Translations under genes and position numbers: made by a program
IMG/VR virus record: IMGVR_UViG_2718218171_000003
Location: 1 to 47,909 of that record
Length of the DNA stretch: 47,909 nucleotides
Source: a virus
Lineage: Duplodnaviria > Heunggongvirae > Uroviricota > Caudoviricetes
Strand: one strand, 5' to 3'
Notes under the pieces: model-generated
What the model saw: the letters and a program-made list of their open reading frames with translations, nothing else
Told to the model about the DNA's origin: nothing
Database searches by the model: none
In this document: piece by piece, positions 2,198-47,909 of the stretch
How the letters are laid out: every line of letters begins with the position of its first letter
How positions within the stretch are numbered: the first letter of the stretch is position 1

Positions 2198-5100
2198 TTA
2201 TCTCGTAAAGCTAGTTTTATGACTTCCTGTTAGCTGACTGTCTTCATAATAAAATGCTCCACTAAACTCCTGTCGACCATAATGATGACTTGATGTGAGT
2301 GAGCCCCCTATAACGCCCTTTTCACCTAATAATGTCCAAACGATTTCAAAACCATTGTCCCTTAACATTGTTAAAAATGGTTCTTTTTTAACAAGTAGAT
2401 GCGGCTTTGAAGCATATACAGCTTCAGCTGCAAAGCAAACCATAGTTCCATTTTCATCATTGAAGCTACCCTCTACTTCCCCACTTTTTAATCCCATCTT
2501 TTCAAAGATTAAGTTACTAGGCTTCAAAAAATTCAAAGTTTCTATTTTTGATTTGTCGAACTCCTCTTCCCACAAATAATTAATCGAAGTGACACTAACA
2601 TCAGCAATCTTAGCTCCAGACTCCCGGTCTGTTACCGAAGTCCAGTCAGATCCACCATAATAATCTGATTTAAAAGACTTAAATGCTTCGGACCAATAGT
2701 ACTCCCTATTAAATAATTGGTATCTATCAGTACATTCCGGCATCCACCTGCCCATAAAGTCTTGAGCTATTGCCCAATATCTAAAATTTTCAAATTCTTC
2801 AACTTTAACGATATAACTTCTGATCTGATACCAAACCTCTTTTCGTGGGTGCCCCCAATCATCGTTTCCAATAATTTTTGGTTCTTTCCATGATGGATAA
2901 CTTTCTAATACTATCCATTCATCACCATTATCATCTTTAACTTCAATAAAAGCATATGAATTAGTTATAGTAGTAGAACTTTTAACCCAGTCTTCATTAG
3001 AGCAAGTCCAATCAAACACTTCATCATTAAGCCACCACATTTCTTTATTGCTTATTTTTTTCGTTCCAGTTTCTTTAAGTAAGATAGTGGGATCTATATC
3101 TCTTACGTAAGGCTCCCATGGCCCTTGGTATGGATTTTCCTTTCGTTCGTCACCATAACCTTCAAAACGAGTAAAATTATCGGCTAGCCTTGCCATGTAT
3201 TCATAATAAGCAATCCATTGGTATTTTTTACCAATCCGTTCTTGGAATGCCTCTCTACGTCCACGTCCAGTTCCTATTTGTTGGTCAAAATTACCATGCT
3301 TCTCCGGATCCCAACCAAGCTCTATAACACGATTGAATATAAATTGTTGAGCTAGTCGAAGATCAAAGTGTTTATCAGTTTCCAGCAGATTATTATTATG
3401 ATCCAGGTATGGCTCTATTTCATTTTCAAACTCACTTAACAGATCGTATGACAATGAATTCTTAAATAATTTCTTGCTCGCCTTTATTTCTTCCTGTGCT
3501 TTTCTACCGACCACACGACCAAATTTAATTCCTTCGCATTTATCATCATAAATGAAAGGATCTGTGGCATCATACAAATCTTTTTGTTGATCAGTTAGTT
3601 TACATTTGAAAGTTTTAAAAACTTGCTTACGGTCAACAGGGGTTTCATTAAACTTGCAACCAGACCAATCAGAATGATTATAATTTGTACCAATAGTATA
3701 TCGTGAAAAGTCACCACCTTCCATAATCGAGCTCCAGAGTTCCCGATAAGGTTCTTTATCATAAAGGGACTCTAGTTCCTCTTTTGAAGGAATCTTGTCA
3801 GGCCAAATGCTGTTGTAGGGTGGTCTAGTCTTGGATAATTCAATGCTTTCAAGTTCCAATCCAAGATGATTAGCAAATTCAATAATCTCTCTAGCATAAT
3901 CTCTAAGTAATATATTTGGATACACATACTCAGAACAAAATACCTTTTGGTAAACAGTTTCGGCTAAATATTTTAGTTCTTTAATATTATCAGTTCGCAA
4001 TGTACAGCCTAATGCAACTGCAAATATTCTTTCCCAAACGTAAGGATCATTTACACCATAAAACTTATCAATTATTTTTCTCAATACAGGAATTCTTGGC
4101 TCGAGTAAACTCACTAAAGCCTTGGTTGAGCAATCTCGAAGTTCTCGGTTACTAGAAGTTAAAAACCAGCATAAACTAGTTGCAACTAGCTCGATTGACT
4201 CATCCGAAACAAAGCTTTTATCTGTTCTGGCCCATGCCCAATCGATTAGATGCCTAAAAGCTGAGTCTTCACTATATTTATATTTAAGTTCTGTAGTCCA
4301 AAACGAATCTCGATTTGCCAAAGAATAATCTTTTAGCCAATCATGCAAGAAATTAGCATTAAAGGGATGGTCAACTAAACCTGAAATAGAGATCACTGCC
4401 TCGAGGAAATGATCAAAACTATCTTTAAATTTAAAAACATGTTCATTGATGAAAGGTCTAATTTTTTCGAAATCAATAGCCTTAATATCTCGCCATATCA
4501 AGCTATCAATAAAGGCTTCTAGTAATTTAAGATTATTGCTAAACTCCGGCAGAAATTCATAAAGCTCTTTTTCATACCTTTCTGGCAATTGAATAGACAG
4601 CGCCTCTACTATTCCCGATTTTATATAAAAATCACATTCATCATGAAAATATTTTTTCAGACGACCATCAGGCTTAAATTCACTTTCGATATTTTCAACA
4701 TCATTTAATAAAAAATTAACAGTTAAATGATCATCAAACCTTTCAAAAGCCACATAAACTACTTCCTCAGTAGAATTATCATCATTTCTCACTATGCCTT
4801 TAGTCAATAATCCTTCGTCAATCAAGGCGCTGAGGAAGGTTTTATCAGCAACATAATCATTAACTACAGATTGAACCACTGAGTGAGCATCTTTAAGTGA
4901 AATACTATTACGACCAATCTCTAATTTGAATTTTATGATTTCATTGAGAGCATCTTTAACAAGAGGAAAACTGGGATCGAATGCATATTTTCTTGGCGAT
5001 GCTAATGATTTATTTACCCCTTCCACTAAAAAGTTAAAAATATTTGAAATCCCATTAAATCCAACAGGCACTTTGGTTAAACCATTTTTCTTAATGCCTT

Positions 5101-6652
5101 CACACAATAACTTAAGAAATAGAGGGTTTTTAAACTCTGGATTAAGGTTAGGTGATGAAGGCCTCTCTATATTGTAATAATCATAAAATAGACTAACCGC
5201 TTCCAACTCAACGCTCTGAAATCCAATATGTTCATGAATTTCAAAATTATTTCGCTCAACATTCTCATGTGAAATTGTTACATTTCTATATGTTGTTCTG
5301 ACTGACATTATCAGACCAAGCCATTCAAAGCCTCTGATTTCATCGACAAAACTGTTAATATTGTCATTCCAGAATTTATTTCCATTACCTTCATTAATAG
5401 CATCAATAAAAACTAAGACTCTTTTTCCTGTTTTTTTGCCATATAAATTCAGTTTTTCTAGGAATTCACGAGAAGTGATTTTAAGCTGTAATCTCTTGAA
5501 GATTTGTGACCATGGAGATTCATCTGAAGTAAGTTGTTGCCCTAGTATGAGTAGAGAAGGATACCCAGAAGCAATTCGATTTTTAATCACATCAGCCAGT
5601 AAATGAGACTTACCAATTCCAGCTTTTCCTTCGAGAAGTAAGAATGGGTTGTTAGCCAACTTCACTGTTGTTGAATTAATGAATGTACGTAATTCATTGC
5701 ACGCATAGTCAAGTTCCCGAAGCATTCGCAGAGTAGATGAATACTTATCACTGTAATGCTTGGTTTCACCTACTTGTTCTGATTTTTCTCGGAGTTCCCA
5801 CAATATTGATTCCGCTCCGCCAATAGCTGTCTGGCAACTAGAAACATAGTTATTAAATTTATTTATAGGGATTTCATCTAATTTAGAAAAATTAATTTCT
5901 TGATATATATCAGAAATTTCTTTTAAGGACTGGTCTATTTCAGATAATTGTGAGGAAATTACATCGCAACTATGTAATTTCTTTCCAGTGACCAGAAAAC
6001 TATCTATATGCGAATAAAATATTTTAGAAAAATTATTAGTTCTACCGAGACCATCAAATATCTCTGCTATTTCTAGCTTTACGTTGAGTTCGGGTGTGTA
6101 TCGGCCTCCCAAGTCAGCTATTGCTTGACTACTTTTCTCATTTAACCAATCATCACTCAAGTGAAAAGTTAGTTTCTCATCTATAGACCGCAAAACAAGT
6201 TTAATTTGAATAAGCTCTTCATTAATATCGAATATTTTTTCTTTATAAGTTTCTTCGATATGTAGCTTTTTTAACTTCGAACAATTATTTATTTTTAACG
6301 ACAACATCCCATAAAAAAGGCTGAGTTGTTGTTGAGTTGGGGGAGTGACGCTTGGATATTCTTTGAACTTGTCTAATAACATCTCTTTGTCAGGGAACTC
6401 TTTAAAAAGGATGTGCTCATTCAACATCTCAAACAATGGTTTAGAATGATAAAATGGAATTGCTCCACTTTCTACTGGATATGTTTCTTCAAACTCAATT
6501 GCCGTCTCTTCAATTAGTTGATATAATCTATCCACATATTTTTCTGTGGGGAATAATGCTTTCTTAATCCAACTATATCCTTCTTGAGAAATGAATTGAT
6601 CAATAAGTTTAGTTGCTACATAAGTTGCCACTGTAATTGATATGGGTTCCAT
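2198..6652 (-). CDS. NACHT/STAND-type P-loop NTPase (NLR-like), 1484 aa; candidate antiphage defence protein
   Basis: Uninterrupted 4455-nt ORF; Walker A GKAGIGKS (aa 342-349, codons 5606-5629), Walker B-like VLVFIDAINE (aa 412-421), sensor-1-like LIMSVRTT (aa 447-454), NPLFLKLL helix; N-terminal about 330 aa and C-terminal about 900 aa without assignable motifs; strongly AT-rich unlike neighbouring phage genes; RBS GGAAGA 8 nt upstream of ATG. Confidence 0.7.
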   Translation of the reverse strand: MEPISITVATYVATKLIDQFISQEGYSWIKKALFPTEKYVDRLYQLIEETAIEFEETYPVESGAIPFYHSKPLFEMLNEHILFKEFPDKEMLLDKFKEYPSVTPPTQQQLSLFYGMLSLKINNCSKLKKLHIEETYKEKIFDINEELIQIKLVLRSIDEKLTFHLSDDWLNEKSSQAIADLGGRYTPELNVKLEIAEIFDGLGRTNNFSKIFYSHIDSFLVTGKKLHSCDVISSQLSEIDQSLKEISDIYQEINFSKLDEIPINKFNNYVSSCQTAIGGAESILWELREKSEQVGETKHYSDKYSSTLRMLRELDYACNELRTFINSTTVKLANNPFLLLEGKAGIGKSHLLADVIKNRIASGYPSLLILGQQLTSDESPWSQIFKRLQLKITSREFLEKLNLYGKKTGKRVLVFIDAINEGNGNKFWNDNINSFVDEIRGFEWLGLIMSVRTTYRNVTISHENVERNNFEIHEHIGFQSVELEAVSLFYDYYNIERPSSPNLNPEFKNPLFLKLLCEGIKKNGLTKVPVGFNGISNIFNFLVEGVNKSLASPRKYAFDPSFPLVKDALNEIIKFKLEIGRNSISLKDAHSVVQSVVNDYVADKTFLSALIDEGLLTKGIVRNDDNSTEEVVYVAFERFDDHLTVNFLLNDVENIESEFKPDGRLKKYFHDECDFYIKSGIVEALSIQLPERYEKELYEFLPEFSNNLKLLEAFIDSLIWRDIKAIDFEKIRPFINEHVFKFKDSFDHFLEAVISISGLVDHPFNANFLHDWLKDYSLANRDSFWTTELKYKYSEDSAFRHLIDWAWARTDKSFVSDESIELVATSLCWFLTSSNRELRDCSTKALVSLLEPRIPVLRKIIDKFYGVNDPYVWERIFAVALGCTLRTDNIKELKYLAETVYQKVFCSEYVYPNILLRDYAREIIEFANHLGLELESIELSKTRPPYNSIWPDKIPSKEELESLYDKEPYRELWSSIMEGGDFSRYTIGTNYNHSDWSGCKFNETPVDRKQVFKTFKCKLTDQQKDLYDATDPFIYDDKCEGIKFGRVVGRKAQEEIKASKKLFKNSLSYDLLSEFENEIEPYLDHNNNLLETDKHFDLRLAQQFIFNRVIELGWDPEKHGNFDQQIGTGRGRREAFQERIGKKYQWIAYYEYMARLADNFTRFEGYGDERKENPYQGPWEPYVRDIDPTILLKETGTKKISNKEMWWLNDEVFDWTCSNEDWVKSSTTITNSYAFIEVKDDNGDEWIVLESYPSWKEPKIIGNDDWGHPRKEVWYQIRSYIVKVEEFENFRYWAIAQDFMGRWMPECTDRYQLFNREYYWSEAFKSFKSDYYGGSDWTSVTDRESGAKIADVSVTSINYLWEEEFDKSKIETLNFLKPSNLIFEKMGLKSGEVEGSFNDENGTMVCFAAEAVYASKPHLLVKKEPFLTMLRDNGFEIVWTLLGEKGVIGGSLTSSHHYGRQEFSGAFYYEDSQLTGSHKTSFTR

Positions 6653-8845: not shown

Positions 8846-11220
8846 TAGATTGACTCCCCCACCTGAGCATCAGTCAATGCCTTGTGCCATATTCTGAAAT
8901 TCCTGACATGACCAAATAAATGACGTAACCCGGCTGTAGTCTGGCCTCCAATACGGATAATTGCGGTGTTCTGAATACAGGACCATGTGGTTTTTGTTTC
9001 GCTGGATATATGCCCGTTACTTACTGAGCACGTAGACTGCTCTGACTTTACACGCATCCCCATAACCATTTTTTCAAGCGATGCGTTTTCGTTTACCCGT
9101 CTGTTAGCTCCTCCAATATCGCAATAAGGAAATCCGTCGTAATCTGTTGAACGACCGAAGCCAAGAATAATAGCCGCTCCGGTTTGATGACCGCCGGTAT
9201 CAAAAACACGTGGCGCTGCATTTGGCGTTTTATACCAGTTCTTATGTACCTCACAAAGAACCGTAAAAGGAAGATTATAAAGATTATTCTTAATTGGAAC
9301 TGTAACTATATCGCTTGCGCGGGTCGCCGCCGTCGCTCCTGATATAATAAAAGATGATACACAAGGCCCATCTTCTACTTGTGGGGTGGCCAGATAAATA
9401 TAGTCACCAGATACGGTTGCCCCGCTCTGCTTAGGAGAATACTGTATCTGAGAGCCTATTTTTAACTCCCCATCAATTGCCTGAATTGTTGCCTCTGCAA
9501 AAATCCATCCGGTAGCTTCGTCCTTTCTGACTCTCGCTGTAATCCTTGAGGCAGCACCGCCTGTCATATTAATTTCAAGCGTTTGTGTATCAATATACGC
9601 ATCACCAAGAAAAGTTGTTGCGCTACCGTCATATTTATCAAACCGGATACGCAACCTTACCTGCAGTTCTGTTTTAAAACGACATGAGGTTGTCACGTGT
9701 TTATTATCGCCTGAGACATCAACTGACTTTGTTGCAGCAATTGACGCCATATTAATGGCTGAGGTTTGCCCAATCAGAGAATCGTTGCAGACAAACTTTC
9801 CATAGGTAAAACCAAAATTATCCGTCCCTGTTTCGGGCACATCCATATTTGACGATCGCCCCCAACTGGCAGGGCTTTCCGAATTGAGCATGTAGTTTGT
9901 TCTTTGCCCCTCAATAAGCAGGCCATCACGTTCAAATCGTGGCTCGTCAATGGCAGCCTCTGTCAGCACACCAGATTTGTTAATATAGGTTGCTTTCGAT
10001 GCACGTTTAAACTTAACAATCTTGTCGCCAGGCATCGTTATTTCATCGTCACCAATAACAATTTTTTTATATGATGGCGAAAAGCCCGTAATCATATCCA
10101 GCGAATCGTTAAATGGTATCCACACATCAGGCAGCGGCTGTAAGACATATTTATACGGCTCCGCAGCCTGGCTTGCGTACTCTCTGGCTGCATCTTCGCT
10201 TGCTTTAGCTGCCGTCTGGCTTGCTGCCGATGCTTTCGCTGAGTTCGCAGCCGCTGTTTCGCTCACCTTTGCGTTGGTTTCACTGGTTTTTGCTGCTTTT
10301 TGACTGTTAGCTGATGCAGTGGCAGAAGCAGCCGCCGCGCTTGCAGAACTGGCTGCGGCACTCTCGCTTTGGGCCGCTGCATCCTGACTGCTTTTCGCCG
10401 CAGTTTCACTGGCTTTGGCATTCGTTTCGCTGGTCTTCGCTGCCGTCTGGCTGGACTTTGCGTTAGTTTCACTCGTCTTCGCAGCTTTCTGGCTGTTAGC
10501 CGCAGCAGTTGCTGATCCAGCTGCTGAAGTCGCAGAACCGGCTGCCGCGCTCTCGCTTTGGGCTGCTGCAACCTGGCTGTTTTTTGCCGCAGTTTCACTG
10601 GCTTTGGCATTCGTTTCGCTGGTTTTCGCTGCCGTCTGGCTGGACTTTGCGTTGGTTTCGCTCGTCTTTGCGGCTGTCTCGCTATTTTTCGCGTTGGTTT
10701 CTGATTTTTTGGCTGCTGTCGCGGAGTTTTCTGATGCAGTCTGTGAGGTCGCTGCCGTCTGTGCACTATTAGCTGCATTCGTTTCTGAGGTTTTCGCCGC
10801 GTTCTTCGATGATGCCGCTGCAGTTTCGGATTTCTTTGCCGCCGCTGCGCTCTGAGAGGCGGCTTCGGCGTTGCGTGCCACTTCTTCCACCATTGCCTCA
10901 AAACGACGCAATGCCTCCGGCATGACATCATCTTCCGTCATGGCACCGAGAAAATCATTCAGCGTACCTGGTCTGGAGCCTTCATAGACGGTAATGGTCC
11001 CGGCATGTGAAGGCGGAAAACCTTCAACCAGCAGGATGACGCTGTACTGGCCATGCTCAACATCCATGCTGTAACGCCCGGCTTCATCCGGATTTTCAGA
11101 GGCCACCGTGTTCACCAGTACCGTGGTGCTGTTACGCTTTGCCTTCAGTTGAATAGTGCAGTTCTGTATTGGTTTTCCCGCACCATCTTTCAGCACACCT
11201 GAGATTTTTACTGCTGCCAT
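8845..11220 (-). CDS. stf: Side tail fibre protein (Stf-like), 791 aa, lambda-like N-terminus with a repetitive shaft and a distinct C-terminal domain
   Basis: N-terminus MAVKISGVLKDG...GFPPSHAGTITVYE matches lambda Stf; ATG at 11220 with GGAG RBS; Ala/Ser/Thr/Lys-rich repeats; C-terminus ends GHVRNFRIWHKALTDAQVGE (lectin/LamG-like signature, inferred). Confidence 0.85.
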   Translation of the reverse strand: MAAVKISGVLKDGAGKPIQNCTIQLKAKRNSTTVLVNTVASENPDEAGRYSMDVEHGQYSVILLVEGFPPSHAGTITVYEGSRPGTLNDFLGAMTEDDVMPEALRRFEAMVEEVARNAEAASQSAAAAKKSETAAASSKNAAKTSETNAANSAQTAATSQTASENSATAAKKSETNAKNSETAAKTSETNAKSSQTAAKTSETNAKASETAAKNSQVAAAQSESAAAGSATSAAGSATAAANSQKAAKTSETNAKSSQTAAKTSETNAKASETAAKSSQDAAAQSESAAASSASAAAASATASANSQKAAKTSETNAKVSETAAANSAKASAASQTAAKASEDAAREYASQAAEPYKYVLQPLPDVWIPFNDSLDMITGFSPSYKKIVIGDDEITMPGDKIVKFKRASKATYINKSGVLTEAAIDEPRFERDGLLIEGQRTNYMLNSESPASWGRSSNMDVPETGTDNFGFTYGKFVCNDSLIGQTSAINMASIAATKSVDVSGDNKHVTTSCRFKTELQVRLRIRFDKYDGSATTFLGDAYIDTQTLEINMTGGAASRITARVRKDEATGWIFAEATIQAIDGELKIGSQIQYSPKQSGATVSGDYIYLATPQVEDGPCVSSFIISGATAATRASDIVTVPIKNNLYNLPFTVLCEVHKNWYKTPNAAPRVFDTGGHQTGAAIILGFGRSTDYDGFPYCDIGGANRRVNENASLEKMVMGMRVKSEQSTCSVSNGHISSETKTTWSCIQNTAIIRIGGQTTAGLRHLFGHVRNFRIWHKALTDAQVGESI
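10180..10668. repeat. In-frame tandem repeats inside stf (unit about 189 bp = 63 aa, two full copies plus a partial third)
   Basis: Protein repeats KTSETNAKSSQTAAKTSETNAKASETAAK...ANSQKAA at aa 187-249 and 250-312; near-identical DNA segments about 189 nt apart. Confidence 0.7.
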
Positions 11221-41452: not shown

Positions 41453-41893
41453 ATGAAACACGGTTATTACGAAGCTCCAAACCTAACTGAAAAGCTTGAA
41501 CAAGCGGCAAGATCATCATCTTTGCACACCGCAGCATTTTCTCAATCAGCTGGTATGTCTGGCGGTAATGTACCTATGCTACAATCAAGTGGTAGCGGTG
41601 GCTCTGGGAGTAATAATGTGCTTGAATCGAAAGTTGCAAAGCTTGAGTCTGATGTGTCCTACATCCGACGTGACGTTGATGAGCTCAAGACAGATGTCAA
41701 ATCTATCGACAGAAACATGATCGCTGTTCTGGAGCGACTCGATTCAATAAAAGAGTCACTAGCCAAAAAACCATCCATCGATGCTGTCGATAGAAAGATT
41801 TCAGACGCAAAGCTTGCGGTATTGCTTGGTGTTCCAGCAATCATCGCTGCAGGAACAGGGCTTTATAAGCTATCAATGTACTTTTTTCTTTAG
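41453..41893 (+). CDS. 146-aa protein with Gly/Ser linker, coiled coil and C-terminal transmembrane anchor (XhlA-like architecture)
   Basis: SSGSGGSGS linker, heptad-like LESKVAKLESDVSYIRRDVDELKTDVKSIDRNMIAVLERLDSIKESL, C-terminal LAVLLGVPAIIAAGTGLYKL; AT-rich. Confidence 0.5.
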   Translation: MKHGYYEAPNLTEKLEQAARSSSLHTAAFSQSAGMSGGNVPMLQSSGSGGSGSNNVLESKVAKLESDVSYIRRDVDELKTDVKSIDRNMIAVLERLDSIKESLAKKPSIDAVDRKISDAKLAVLLGVPAIIAAGTGLYKLSMYFFL

Positions 41894-41982
41894 TGCTTAA
41901 GAAACTGCTCGCCACCTTGCATTAGGCAAAGCGATTTTTCATTCCCTATTACCCTTTCTTAACCAATCATCTAAACCCTGCC

Positions 41983-42036
41983 CCCGTGAACTGACCCCCG
42001 AAAGTTGGACAGTTCACGGGCCCGGGTTTTCTTTTG
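41983..42036 (+). terminator. Terminator-like hairpin ending the cI operon
   Basis: Perfect 11-bp stem CCCGTGAACTG / CAGTTCACGGG with 16-nt loop, then CCCGGGTTTTCTTTTG. Confidence 0.55.
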
Positions 42037-42173
42037 CCTCCCCTCATCACACACCGTTCAAAAAACCACCACAACCCCGCTTCGGTTATCGCTATGCGAT
42101 GCAAGTCACAAAATTAATTCTTTTTGCTATCAAACATTTAATATCAAAACACATCTAGCAATAGCAATAAGTA

Positions 42174-42202
42174 TTGATATCATCAATAGCAATAGCTATT
42201 AT
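42174..42202 (+). promoter_or_regulatory. pL-like promoter with overlapping operator repeats (OL)
   Basis: -35 TTGATA (42174-42179), 17-nt spacer, -10 TATTAT (42197-42202); inverted repeat AATAGC-AATA-GCTATT across the -10; AATAGCAAT motif shared with the cI-cro intergenic region. Confidence 0.55.
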
Positions 42203-42395
42203 CACCATATCGCAACAACACAACGATACGGCAACCACCTGATTCACCGTTGCGATGACCGCTTAGATCCGCAGCTTGAATTTCAGCAGGCTCAGGGGAG
42301 TGCGAGGGGTGAAGCGGACGCGTGAACGTCGGTGTGACCAGCTGAAATTAACTCAACACTTCATACCTCAGTCGCTTCAACGAGGCGGCTTAGTT

Positions 42396-42686
42396 ATGAC
42401 AACCGGCGGCCATCCACCGCCTGAATACGCGCAGAAGTCTCTATATGTTCAGCAGCCCAGCTTACGGGCAGGAGTTTTTATGGTTCATCAACATTACGGA
42501 ACGCAGACCGTTAATCGCGGTGCGGTCATGCCAGGAATGCTGGTCAAACACAAAGATGGTACCTGGACTGCATCAGCTAATTTACGCGGACGGCTATATC
42601 TGCATCGCGGCATCGAGCGCACTTATACCCGTGATTTGCTCGTGGAAGTTTTTCTCGACGGACGCGGTAACGGCCTGAATCACTAA
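42396..42686 (+). CDS. Hypothetical 96-aa protein, first gene of the pL operon
   Basis: ATG at 42396 with GAGG RBS; track ORF extends upstream to a TTG at 42276; no recognisable motif. Confidence 0.4.
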
Positions 42687-42761: not shown

Positions 42762-43058
42762 ATGAACGCTTATTACATTCAGGATCGTCTTGAGGCTCAG
42801 AGCTGGGCGCGTCACTACCAGCAGATCGCCCGTGAAGAGAAAGAGGCAGAACTGGCAGACGACATGGAAAAAGGTCTTCCACAGCACCTGTTTGAATCAC
42901 TCTGCATCGATCATTTGCAACGCCACGGGGCCAGCAAAAAAGCCATTACCCGTGCGTTTGATGACGACGTTGAGTTTCAGGAGCGCATGGCAGAACACAT
43001 CCGGTACATGGTTGAAACAATTGCTCACCACCAGGTTGATATTGATTCAGAGGTATAA
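42762..43058 (+). CDS. gam: Gam (RecBCD inhibitor), 98-aa form
   Basis: [56 protein letters not shown] matching lambda Gam. Confidence 0.95.
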
Positions 43059-43063
43059 AACGA

Positions 43064-43849
43064 ATGAGTACTGCACTCGCAACGCTGGCAGGGAAGCTGG
43101 CTGAACGTGTCGGCATGGATTCTGTCGACCCACAGGAACTGATCACCACTCTTCGCCAGACGGCATTTAAAGGTGATGCCAGCGATGCGCAGTTTATCGC
43201 ATTGCTGATCGTTGCCAACCAGTACGGCCTTAATCCGTGGACGAAAGAAATTTACGCCTTCCCTGATAAGCAGAACGGCATCGTTCCTGTGGTGGGCGTT
43301 GATGGCTGGTCCCGCATCATTAATGAAAACCAGCAGTTTGATGGCATGGACTTTGAGCAGGACAATGAATCATGTACATGCCGGATTTACCGCAAGGACC
43401 GTAATCATCCGATCTGCGTTACCGAGTGGATGGATGAATGCCGCCGCGAACCATTCAAAACCCGCGAAGGCAGAGAAATCACGGGACCGTGGCAGTCGCA
43501 TCCCAAACGGATGTTACGGCATAAAGCTATGATTCAGTGTGCCCGTCTGGCCTTCGGATTTGCTGGTATCTATGACAAGGATGAAGCCGAGCGCATTGTC
43601 GAAAATACCGCATACACTGCAGAACGTCAGCCGGAACGCGACATCACTCCGGTTAACGATGAAACCATGCAGGAGATTAACACTCTGCTGATCGCCCTGG
43701 ATAAAACATGGGATGACGACTTATTGCCGCTCTGTTCCCAGATATTTCGCCGCGACATTCGCGCATCGTCAGAACTGACACAGGCCGAAGCAGTGAAAGC
43801 TCTTGGATTCCTGAAACAGAAAGCCACTGAGCAGAAGGTGGCAGCATGA
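43064..43849 (+). CDS. bet: Bet (Red beta single-strand annealing protein)
   Basis: 261-aa [69 protein letters not shown] matching lambda Bet. Confidence 0.95.
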
Positions 43850-44526
43850 CACCGGACATTATCCTGCAGCGTACCGGCATCGACGTGAGAGCTGTCGAAC
43901 AGGGGGATGATGCATGGCACAAATTACGGCTCGGCGTCATCACCGCTTCAGAAGTTCACAACGTGATAGCTAAGCCCCGCTCAGGAAAGAAGTGGCCTGA
44001 CATGAAAATGTCCTACTTCCACACCCTGCTGGCTGAGGTTTGCACCGGTGTGGCTCCGGAAGTTAATGCTAAGGCGCTGGCCTGGGGAAAACAGTACGAG
44101 AACGACGCCAGAACCCTGTTTGAATTCACTTCCGGCGTGAATGTTACTGATTCCCCGATCATCTATCGCGACGAAAGTATGCGCACCGCCTGTTCTCCCG
44201 ATGGTTTATGCAGTGACGGCAATGGCCTTGAGCTGAAATGCCCGTTTACCTCCCGGGATTTCATGAAGTTCCGGCTCGGTGGTTTCGAGGCCATAAAGTC
44301 GGCTTACATGGCCCAGGTGCAGTACAGCATGTGGGTGACACGAAAAGATGCCTGGTACTTTGCCAACTATGACCCGCGTATGAAGCGTGAAGGACTGCAT
44401 TATGTCGTGGTTGAGCGGGATGAAAAGTACATGGCGAGTTTTGACGAGATGGTGCCGGAGTTCATCGAAAAAATGGACGAGGCACTGGCTGAAATTGGTT
44501 TTGTATTTGGGGAGCAATGGCGATGA
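43846..44526 (+). CDS. exo: Exo (lambda exonuclease)
   Basis: 226-aa [68 protein letters not shown] matching lambda Exo. Confidence 0.95.
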
Positions 44527-44681
44527 CGCATCCTCACGATAATATCCGGGTAGGCGCGATCACTTTCGTCTACTCCATTACAAAGCGAGGCTGGGTATTT
44601 CCCGGCCTTTCTGTTATCAGAAATCCACTGAAAGCACAGCGGCTGGCTGAGAAGATAAATAATAAACAGGAGGATATATGA
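44517..44681 (+). CDS. 54-aa ORF coupled to exo (overlap) and to the downstream DndB-like gene (ATGA)
   Basis: [54 protein letters not shown] translated by hand; below the ORF-track cutoff. Confidence 0.35.
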
Positions 44682-45742
44682 GTCAGGTTGGTAATCATTC
44701 ATTCGAATTTCCGGCATCGCAAGGTGTACAGGGTGGTACTGTTACACTCTTCCTTACCATACCAGGAAGATCGCTGGCTCGTTTCCTCGCTTCAGATAAT
44801 TACGGCCATACACTGTAACGCTCTCAGCGAGAAATTAATCCAAATCGAGTACGAAAATTTTTAAATTATCTCACTAACGCAGACTCAAGAAATGAGCCTT
44901 TTATCATTCCCCCTCTCGTAGGTAACTGTGATTCGAATATAGAATTTGTACCGTTTGGCAACACAAATGTTGGTATAGCCAGAATTCCCCTCGACGCCGA
45001 AATAAAACTTTTTGATGGTCAACATCGTGCAGCTGGCATTGAGATATATTGCCGAAGTTCCCCATCAACGCTCATGGTTCCCATGATGCTTACAATGAAT
45101 CTGCCGCTAAAAACCAGGCAGCAGTTCTTTTCGGACATAAATAACAACGTTTCTAAGCCATCAGCGACCATCAATATGGCGTATAACGGCCGGGATGATA
45201 TTGCTCAGGGAATGATATCCTTCCTGACCCAACATACTGTATTTGCCGATATAACCGATTTTGAACACAACGTAGTGCCATTAAAAAGTAATATGTGGGT
45301 GAGTTTCAAGGCACTCACTGATGCAACGTCAAAGTTCGCTAGGAACGGCAATCAACAACTTGAAATGGGATATATAGAATCTGTCTGGGAGGCATGGATT
45401 ACACTAACTCAGATTGACTCAATCCGACATGGTGTACACCACGCTACGTACAAGCGCGATTATATTCAGTTCCATGGAGTAATGATTAACGCTTTCGGTT
45501 TTGCGGTTCAACAGATGATGGTTAATCATTCCATCGCAGAAATAACTTCTATGATCGAAAAACTATGTGCAACTACCAGCTCTGCAGAAAGAGAGGATTT
45601 TTTTCTGATGGATAACTGGGCGGGGATCTGCACGAAAGCCAGCCAGGAAAAACTATCTGTTATTGCCAATGTGGCAGCGCAGAAAGCAGCAGCAAACAGA
45701 CTGATACAAGCTTTTACCAAAGGAAGTCTGGAATCAACTTAA
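44678..45742 (+). pseudogene. DndB-like DGQHR-domain gene interrupted by an in-frame TAA (at 44816-44818)
   Basis: One frame reads ATG 44678 ... FPASQGVQGG ... TAA ... LFDGQHRAAGIEIYC ... to stop at 45742; no ATG/GTG/TTG between the TAA and the ATG at 45074, so the DGQHR segment has no start codon. Confidence 0.6.
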
Positions 45743-45895
45743 TGAATCAACATTGTCTCATATCAGCATGCTGTACGGCGTCTTTAAGGAACGGTGAACA
45801 TGAAAAGCAAAATCATCAGGGAGCTACAGGCTCCTTTTTTATTGTTCGCATTCACCCTCAAGCGTATTAACCAACAATTTAGGGATTAATGGAAG

Positions 45896-46114
45896 ATGGC
45901 AGACATCATTGATTCAGCATCAGAAATTGAAGAATTACAGCGCAACACAGCAATAAAAATGCACCGCCTGAACCACCAGGCTATATCTGCCACTCATTGT
46001 TGTGAGTGTGGCGATCCGATAGATGAACGAAGACGTCTGGCCGTTCAGGGTTGTCGGACTTGTGCAAGTTGCCAGGAGGAGATCGAACTTAAGAACAAAC
46101 AATGGGGATTGTGA
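45896..46114 (+). CDS. TraR/DksA-family C4 zinc-finger protein
   Basis: 72-aa ORF with CCECGDPIDERRRLAVQGCRTCASCQ (C-x2-C-x17-C-x2-C). Confidence 0.75.
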   Translation: MADIIDSASEIEELQRNTAIKMHRLNHQAISATHCCECGDPIDERRRLAVQGCRTCASCQEEIELKNKQWGL

Positions 46115-46161: not shown

Positions 46162-46401
46162 ATGTTCAGAATCATTTTTCCTAACACCTGGTACGTCGAC
46201 CACCACGGCACTCCCTGCAAAATCCTGCGTTCTACCCACAACAAAGTTCACTACATCCGAAAAGGCAGAACATGTATCGCCAGCATGTTCCGCTTTAATC
46301 ATGACTTTGAACCTGTGAATAAAGCTGATGCAGATCGGATAGCAGAAGAGATCGAAACGGCAGAACACATTAAGAAGTTACGTGCCATACGCAGGAAATA
46401 G
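46162..46401 (+). CDS. Hypothetical 79-aa protein
   Basis: ORF between the TraR-like gene and xis; no recognisable motif. Confidence 0.4.
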   Translation: MFRIIFPNTWYVDHHGTPCKILRSTHNKVHYIRKGRTCIASMFRFNHDFEPVNKADADRIAEEIETAEHIKKLRAIRRK

Positions 46402-46540: not shown

Positions 46541-46777
46541 ATGTCTCGACTAATCACTTTACAGGACTGGGCTAAAGAAGAATTTGGGGACTTAGCACCA
46601 AGTGAGCGAGTTCTGAAAAAATACGCGCAAGGGAAAATGATGGCCCCACCCGCTATAAAAGTTGGTCGCTACTGGATGATTGACCGAAATTCCCGTTTTG
46701 TAGGAACGCTTGCAGAACCGCAACTCCCAATAAACGCAAACCCAAAACTCCAACGGATAATCGCTGATGGCTGCTAG
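46541..46777 (+). CDS. xis: Excisionase (Xis)
   Basis: 78-aa ORF directly upstream of and overlapping int; LTLQDWAKEE...PPAIKVGRYWMIDRNSRF resembles the lambda Xis fold signature; GAGGAGG RBS. Confidence 0.75.
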   Translation: MSRLITLQDWAKEEFGDLAPSERVLKKYAQGKMMAPPAIKVGRYWMIDRNSRFVGTLAEPQLPINANPKLQRIIADGC

Positions 46778-47909
46778 ACCCCGATCTCACAAAATCTCTA
46801 TACCCAATTTATATTGCAAATTAGATAAGCGAACCGGAAAGGTATATTGGCAATACAAACATCCACTATCCGGTCGTTTTCATAGCTTAGGAACTGATGA
46901 GAATGAAGCAAAACAAGTTGCTACTGAAGCAAATACCATTATTGCTGAACAACGTACCCGACAAATATTAAGCGTCAATGAGCGTCTGGAAAGAATGAAA
47001 GGCAGGCGCTCAGACATTACGGTGACAGAATGGCTTGATAAATATATTTCTATCCAGGAGGACAGGCTGCAACATAATGAACTAAGACCCAACTCCTATC
47101 GGCAAAAAGGCAAACCCATTCGTCTTTTCCGTGAGCATTGTGGAATGCAACACCTCAAGGATATTACCGCACTTGATATTGCCGAAATAATTGATGCTGT
47201 AAAGGCTGAAGGTCATAACAGGATGGCGCAAGTCGTGAGAATGGTGTTAATCGACGTCTTCAAAGAAGCACAACACGCAGGACATGTTCCGCCAGGATTT
47301 AACCCAGCGCAGGCAACAAAACAACCGCGAAATCGAGTAAACCGCCAAAGATTATCACTGCCCGAATGGCAGGCAATATTTGACAGCGTAAGCAGACGGC
47401 AGCCCTATTTAAAATGCGGGATGCTACTTGCTCTTGTCACTGGACAACGTTTAGGCGATATCTGCAATTTGAAATTCTCTGATATCTGGGACGACATGTT
47501 GCACATTACTCAGGAAAAAACCGGTTCAAAACTTGCTATTCCGCTTAACCTGAAATGCGATGCTCTGAATATTACCCTTCGTGAAGTTATATCTCAGTGC
47601 AGGGATGCTGTTGTTAGTAAATATCTGGTCCATTACCGTCACACAACCTCTCAAGCAAACAGAGGAGACCAGGTTTCTGCGAATACTCTGACAACGGCTT
47701 TTAAAAAGGCCAGGGAAAAATGTGGCATAAAATGGGAGCAAGGAACTGCGCCCACATTTCATGAGCAGCGATCTCTGTCAGAACGGTTATATCGGGAACA
47801 GGGTCTGGATACGCAAAAGTTGTTAGGCCATAAATCCAGAAAAATGACCGACCGATACAATGATGATCGTGGTAAAGACTGGATTATCGTAGATATCAAA
47901 ACAGCATAG
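46767..47909 (+). CDS. int: Tyrosine integrase (lambda Int family)
   Basis: 380-aa ORF with C-terminal catalytic region ...HEQRSLSERLYREQ...LLGHKSRKMTDRYNDDRGKDW; stop codon is the last triplet of the window. Confidence 0.9.
   Translation: MAARPRSHKISIPNLYCKLDKRTGKVYWQYKHPLSGRFHSLGTDENEAKQVATEANTIIAEQRTRQILSVNERLERMKGRRSDITVTEWLDKYISIQEDRLQHNELRPNSYRQKGKPIRLFREHCGMQHLKDITALDIAEIIDAVKAEGHNRMAQVVRMVLIDVFKEAQHAGHVPPGFNPAQATKQPRNRVNRQRLSLPEWQAIFDSVSRRQPYLKCGMLLALVTGQRLGDICNLKFSDIWDDMLHITQEKTGSKLAIPLNLKCDALNITLREVISQCRDAVVSKYLVHYRHTTSQANRGDQVSANTLTTAFKKAREKCGIKWEQGTAPTFHEQRSLSERLYREQGLDTQKLLGHKSRKMTDRYNDDRGKDWIIVDIKTA

Follow-up and report, generated by a model that had tools for sequence, protein, structure and literature searches.

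The 1065-nt segment at 44678-45742 (+ strand) of a tailed-phage sequence (Caudoviricetes, IMG/VR record IMGVR_UViG_2718218171_000003; the whole stretch of 47,909 nucleotides was analysed and is called the window below) reads as a single gene with a stop codon in it. The question is whether this is a gene broken by mutation, an intact gene with an error in its sequence, or two genes read as one, and what the unbroken protein would be. The original prediction took it for a DndB-like DGQHR-domain gene that either was inactivated by a recent nonsense mutation or carries a sequencing error.

The reading frame, its product and its neighbours

The ATG at 44678 opens a frame of 355 codons on the + strand that ends with the TAA at 45740-45742; the sole internal stop is the TAA at 44816-44818 (codon 47), so that the predicted single frame was found with only these two stops in it. 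About 16 stops are expected in a random frame of 355 codons, and with 1 internal stop 44678-45742 is thus a genuine coding frame with one lesion. The N-terminus of the frame includes ...FEFPASQGVQGGTVTLF..., and LFDGQHRAAGIEIY begins at codon 111, 64 codons past the internal stop (predicted: about 65). The start codon is preceded by a Shine-Dalgarno sequence, AGGAGG (44668-44673, + strand), with 4 nt (44674-44677) intervening, and in ATGA it overlaps the stop codon of the DUF1317 gene before it, an arrangement suggestive of translational coupling. Downstream of the internal stop, the first in-frame ATG, GTG or TTG is the ATG at 45074, the codon of Met133, from which a residual ORF of 222 amino acids runs to 45742 (+ strand). 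The ORF list thereby agrees with the prediction that no such start codon lies before 45074 and that the C-terminal ORF is without the DGQHR motif. Between the TAA and 45074 only ATT, ATC and ATA occur as in-frame candidate starts, and a search for Shine-Dalgarno matches at these codons and upstream of the ATG at 45074 gave none.

Protein searches of the gene were run with the stop masked. The joined frame matched Pfam PF14072 (DndB; E=8e-46, 157 bits against a cutoff of 29.1) over residues 11-286 and NCBIfam TIGR03187 (DGQHR domain; E=1e-54, 185.8 bits against a cutoff of 58.85) over residues 13-281. Each match is a single stretch that runs unbroken through the stop, and both halves thus belong to one gene; this was the outcome of the HMM search that the original prediction had proposed. 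Among the PADLOC models, the DndB model alone matched, which leaves no other catalogued defence protein as a counterpart, and in PHROGs it fell into phrog_7901 (PHROG 7901; E=3e-215), which is listed as 'unknown function'. A profile search of 1.84 billion representatives yielded only 827 clusters at 50% identity, which makes the superfamily a small one.

When 36 homologues (52-73% identity) were aligned, 91 columns proved invariant, among them R48-S49-Q50-R51-E52, D113-G-Q-H-R117 and F150-F151-S-D-I-N155. These hold the three motifs that make up the DGQHR-domain signature, namely the 'QR pair', 'DGQHR' and 'FxxxN' (Machnicka et al., PMC4619093). Residues Q50-R51, D113-R117 and F151-N155 are invariant in all 36 homologues, and in the window they are encoded in frame but 3' of the stop: R48-E52 directly after it (44819-44833), DGQHR at codons 113-117 (45014-45028) and FxxxN at 45128-45142, all on the + strand. 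Given a profile score above the family cutoff, all three motifs and a ParB/sulfiredoxin fold, the repaired protein is clearly a DGQHR-domain protein with a ParB/sulfiredoxin-fold N-domain; no solved structure of such a protein was detectable by sequence. The intact gene (354 codons plus stop) encodes a solitary protein of 354 amino acids, in which this N-domain is followed by a helical C-domain.

The gene lies between gam (42762-43058), bet (43064-43849), exo (lambda exonuclease / YqaJ; 43846-44526, + strand) and the DUF1317 gene (lambda orf60a type, PF07026; 44523-44681, + strand) on one side and a TraR/DksA zinc-finger gene (45896-46114, + strand), DUF4222 (46162-46401), xis (46541-46777) and int (46767-47909) on the other. 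It is directly downstream of exo and the DUF1317 gene, as the predicted exo-proximal operon position implied, and the region from gam to int is the early-left operon of a lambdoid prophage. The exo and TraR/DksA genes (from Pfam and RefSeq mapping) and the DUF1317 gene (mapped from the RefSeq CDS) are intact; altogether, the 12 other genes of the 7.9-kb early-left region are in frame with their RefSeq orthologues and carry no stops or frameshifts. A terminator-like hairpin (AGGGAGC-TAC-AGGCTCCTT) with a T-run was found, by consensus match only, at 45818-45846 (+ strand), 76 nt 3' of the DGQHR gene and before the TraR/DksA gene. An Rfam scan of the whole window gave no family or recoding element.

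Some further features of the prophage were recorded. The right end of the window, 47909, coincides exactly with the end of the integrase stop codon. The prophage borders on icd (9489-10739 of locus L016) in the closest E. coli relatives, and this is the attachment region that e14 and phage 21-type elements use. Against the closest E. coli relative, the early-left region diverges most at 41500-42500, between the repressor-side genes and kil; this 1 kb holds 64 of the 158 differences, as would fit lambdoid mosaicism. Past the tail-fibre genes, at the late end, the - strand carries an intact ORF of 1484 amino acids (2198-6652) that is the anti-phage protein Avs2 (AVAST type 2; E=0 and 1762 bits with the PADLOC Avs2 models), and homologous E. 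coli regions are annotated avs2.

Intact copies and the origin of the stop

Of 5,426 complete E. coli genomes, 282 have the 1065-nt gene, each time in the same setting (exo, DUF1317, DGQHR, TraR/DksA, DUF4222, xis, int). A 1384-nt segment was matched over its full length by megablast in 281 complete E. coli genomes, the identity reaching 99.6%. Every record that was inspected has an intact 1065-nt CDS at this position, named 'DGQHR domain-containing protein', and the same name is carried by 40 of the 40 matches listed among the 281 full-length ones. The window frame is collinear with the CDS of RefSeq WP_021557045.1 / WP_000084448.1, which with PHROG 7901 represent the same gene (99.6-99.7% nucleotide identity; length, position and neighbours all agree). 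Against these copies the window alone has the Glu47-to-stop change, F124Y and one synonymous change.

Compared base by base with an intact E. coli locus (L003), the window shows three differences: G44816T converts GAA (Glu47) into the ochre codon TAA at 44816-44818; T45048A replaces Phe124 by Tyr (TTT to TAT, 45047-45049); and C45116A is synonymous (CGG to AGG, Arg147). A 63-nt probe centred on the stop matched 282 genomes, none perfectly, and a 129-nt probe over the other two changes matched 283 genomes with two mismatches at best, from which it follows that all three changes are private to the window. The exact TAA-bearing 31-mer had no match in species-representative genomes, IMG/VR or JGI metagenomes. 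With its variable bases left open, the same pattern found 28 viral and 5 metagenome loci, which shows that the scan works. Together with four E. coli loci these 33 form a sample of 37 that was not selected for ORF status; all 34 of the full-length copies in it are intact. Codon 47 is GAA in 32 of the 37 loci and GAC in the remaining 5, and the base in question is never T. The lesion is thus a single G-to-T change at 44816, the ancestral codon being GAA, as comparison with intact homologues had been expected to reveal. Among these loci, codon 47 is seen to vary in the population between sense codons only.

In the 18 distinct sequences, 19 synonymous and 4 nonsynonymous variant codons were counted relative to the consensus, which indicates that purifying selection normally acts on the gene. 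The window departs from the 18-sequence consensus solely at its three private positions and is, judged by these comparisons, a recent offshoot of that gene. Phe124 is kept in at least 90% of the 36 distant homologues, and its loss in the window would fit a relaxed constraint after inactivation, a suggestive reading that draws on three events only. A search of the phage collection at the DNA level gave no sequenced phage with this E. coli allele; the matches were confined to the flanking exo/DUF1317 and TraR regions of lambda-like phages. A look-up of the 46-residue N-terminal fragment returned two independent contigs (L020 and L021, from metagenome or SRA data) that end exactly at codon 47. 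These were rejected as instances of the TAA allele, since both have the wild-type G at the contig end; probably the assembly graph broke there because of the GAA/GAC (Glu/Asp) polymorphism.

Overall, a sense codon of the orthologues has become a stop, the family motifs lie behind it and there is no alternative start, and most probably the window gene is a pseudogene that arose by a real, lineage-private point mutation (G44816T, Glu47 GAA to TAA). Ribosomes could start at the ATG at 44678, given the strong AGGAGG and the overlap with the DUF1317 stop, and translation would halt after 46 codons, ahead of the QR pair (49-51), DGQHR (113-117) and FxxxN (151-155). The sole expected product is the 46-residue N-terminal peptide (44678-44818, + strand), for which the ORF list, the model secondary structure and the conserved motifs were considered; in the model it comprises two beta-strands and one helix of the ParB/sulfiredoxin domain and holds no conserved motif. 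Reinitiation is unlikely because the first 255 nt past the stop hold no ATG, GTG or TTG and the ATG at 45074 lacks a ribosome-binding site; the 222-residue ORF is thus unlikely to be translated. Any product from 45074 would be without the QR and DGQHR motifs, FxxxN being the only one inside that ORF, and we infer that no functional protein is made from the window copy. Early-left transcripts of lambdoid phages, once antiterminated by N, are resistant to Rho-dependent termination, and int is also served by a separate promoter, so a polar effect of the stop on xis and int is probably minor.

The main alternative is a consensus base-call or assembly error at 44816, with GAA as the true codon 47 and an intact gene. 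The allele is recorded in one sequence, is unique among all sequences searched, and a single-base substitution suffices to explain it. Against an error speak the clean reading of the 12 other early-left genes, the nature of the lesion (a substitution outside any homopolymer), the two further private substitutions in the gene, which suggest a truly diverged lineage, and the independent nonsense and frameshift alleles in other assemblies, which show that natural knock-outs occur. We consider the error less likely than the mutation by far, at something like one chance in several; both had been allowed for in the original prediction, and the GAA or GAC of the intact homologues agrees with either.

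A second alternative accepts the mutation and supposes that inactivation was selected, for instance if the protein burdens the lysogen or sets off a host system, which would lead to recurrent knock-outs. The exact 222-residue ORF is called on 8 other contigs, none of which has the TAA of the window, and their lesions differ: Lys60 is changed from AAA to TAA in L004 (5782-5784), a 1-bp deletion affects codon 3 in L007 (near 209), and in L006 (1-845) the first 77 nt of the gene are replaced by unrelated phage DNA beside a Phage_Wedge1 gene; in L005 and L008 the gene is cut by contig ends. A look-up by the 222-residue ORF, however, selects N-terminal lesions by construction. Recurrent inactivation as a general claim was dropped after all 34 full-length copies in the unselected sample proved intact. 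Adaptive loss is also opposed by the ratio of 19 synonymous to 4 nonsynonymous variants, by the intact-protein name in the 40 of 40 listed complete-genome matches and by the homologues at 52-73% identity across Enterobacterales, which are all full length. It is improbable; as far as these sequences go, the look-up and the unselected sample together show occasional decay and not recurrent selected loss.

The stop is followed by C (TAAC), and E. coli has stronger termination contexts than this one, which is the only point, beyond the presence of the stop, in favour of programmed readthrough, a suppressor host or two normally separate genes; such readings are effectively refuted by the homologues, since every one examined has a sense codon at 47 within one unbroken ORF and none has the two parts as separate genes; the HMM matches pass through the stop as a single stretch, there is no Rfam element or other recoding signal, and a conserved recoding site would be common to the relatives, which it is not.

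The feature, read as a pseudogene from a point mutation, is an ordinary dead copy of a gene already annotated in hundreds of genomes. For annotators this means that 44678-45742 should be labelled a DGQHR-domain pseudogene and not two hypothetical proteins of 46 and 222 amino acids.

Solitary DGQHR proteins in phages and plasmids

The clade at 55-73% identity is always found in the early-left operon, between recombination genes and xis/int. The neighbouring recombination genes differ by prophage and are exo/bet, YqaJ/RecT, RdgC or the gene of an HTH_ParB protein. In Salmonella prophages (7065-7616 of L009/L010) the start of a Dam-family methylase gene (PF05869) overlaps the stop of the DGQHR gene, suggesting translational coupling in that lineage, and in Klebsiella and Tatumella prophages the immediate neighbour is an Rv2179c-like exonuclease. 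Intact copies are present in the temperate phages SPN1S, SPN9TCW and SPC32H of Salmonella and ST101-KPC2phi6.3 of Klebsiella, and more distant ones in 83-kb Vibrio phages. For one Salmonella copy the backbone is plasmid-like and carries topoisomerase III, H-NS and TrbM.

Homologues at about 40% identity were found on 1,071 plasmids, 885 of which are predicted to be conjugative. On the IncL/M plasmid pKp616_2 of K. pneumoniae (7989-9272 of L018) the gene is in the leading region, close to mobC, and shares its strand with JAB/RadC, Hha and antirestriction genes and ssb. On MOBF plasmids the homologue is accompanied by radC and an orphan N6 methylase. L017 and L022 likewise have DGQHR homologues in the leading regions of conjugative plasmids, and over L018 and these two loci the genes on the shared strand also include orphan methyltransferases. 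Some of the plasmid homologues are named 'DndB' in RefSeq and yet are solitary, with no dndCDE. The Citrobacter cronae plasmid NZ_CP060445.1 carries a homologue at 39% identity, and 46 nt downstream of it a 'phosphoadenosine phosphosulfate reductase family protein' of 626 amino acids is encoded (9111-10991 of L019); this pair of a ParB-fold protein and a PAPS reductase recalls DndB/DndC or IbrB/IbrA, without dndD or dndE.

The original prediction had also pointed to an association of DGQHR proteins with DNA phosphorothioation and to an anti-restriction or modification-related role. The first did not hold for this gene, as no dnd link was seen in any locus examined: neither dndC, dndD, dndE nor dndFGH was near the gene in the prophage and plasmid loci inspected (E. 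coli, Salmonella, Klebsiella and Tatumella prophages; plasmids). Judged by these neighbours, the intact protein is not part of a phosphorothioation system. 'Modification-related' derives from the family name, and the 'DndB' domain name is no ground for inferring such a system. An anti-restriction role may be considered by inference, and the place of homologues in the leading regions of plasmids lends it some indirect support.

Expression of the intact protein would be from the early-left operon, in which its gene separates the recombination genes from xis/int. DndB and other ParB/sulfiredoxin proteins offer an analogy, by which it could be a nucleotide-gated DNA-binding protein that acts early after entry or induction, in establishment, anti-defence or regulation; this functional model draws on fold and context, and we would put it somewhat short of an even chance. 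Solitary DGQHR proteins are placed in the early-left operon by the recombination genes in phages and in the leading region by ssb, antirestriction genes, radC and an orphan methyltransferase in plasmids. More tentatively still, such ParB/sulfiredoxin-fold proteins might form a class of 'early-entry' factors of temperate phages and conjugative plasmids, nucleotide-gated and DNA-binding, with a part in anti-defence or host reprogramming. If this were so, the Glu47-stop allele of the window would be a ready-made natural knock-out. The family is common (present in about 5% of the complete E. coli genomes and on over 1,000 plasmids, most of them conjugative), conserved, uncharacterised and under purifying selection, and its positions are those where mobile elements keep genes for the first minutes in a new cell. 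Position and conservation thus make the family a reasonable candidate for experiments, the interest being in the family and not in the broken copy. A literature search (DGQHR or DndB with prophage or anti-defense; leading-region ParB) gave no paper on the solitary prophage and plasmid family.

Comparison with DndB and other ParB-fold systems

DndB / DptB (TIGR03233; PMC4507180) and the window protein have the DGQHR domain with its QR, DGQHR and FxxxN motifs in common and are of similar length. DndB is a regulator of the dndBCDE phosphorothioation operon (PMC4507180), and one DndB-like protein was reported to bind ATP and GTP (bioRxiv 10.1101/2025.10.10.680097); two other reports (PMC8569181 and PMC6408774) deal with true dnd clusters only. 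The window protein, by contrast, scored 106.4 bits against the cutoff of 328 of the DndB equivalog and lies in a phage early operon and not in a dnd operon. Of the label 'DndB-like DGQHR', the DGQHR domain and the ParB/sulfiredoxin-like fold were therefore retained, while orthology to DndB, with 106 against 328 bits and no dndCDE nearby, was not.

The DUF262 / GmrS NTPases of GmrSD, BrxU and SspE have the motif DGQQR where the window protein has DGQHR. Unlike GmrSD and the DUF262 proteins, the window protein stands alone, has no HNH/DUF1524 nuclease domain and gave no match to Pfam DUF262, which places it outside that group. It is likewise distinct from canonical partition ParB, both by profiles, the Pfam scan at E <= 0.01 having given no canonical ParB N-terminal or HTH match, and by its surroundings, since no parA was found beside the DGQHR gene in the window or in the loci of its relatives.

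The same difference in Pfam matches separates it from KorB and F-plasmid HerB/YfjB, non-canonical ParB-fold proteins of mobile elements, which it resembles in fold and context only. HerB/YfjB, a ParB-fold protein of the F leading region, was recently reported to be induced on plasmid entry and to reprogram host transcription (bioRxiv 10.64898/2026.07.07.736705). The likeness of the solitary DGQHR proteins to HerB/YfjB is an analogy of fold and setting, distinct from homology at the level of the family.
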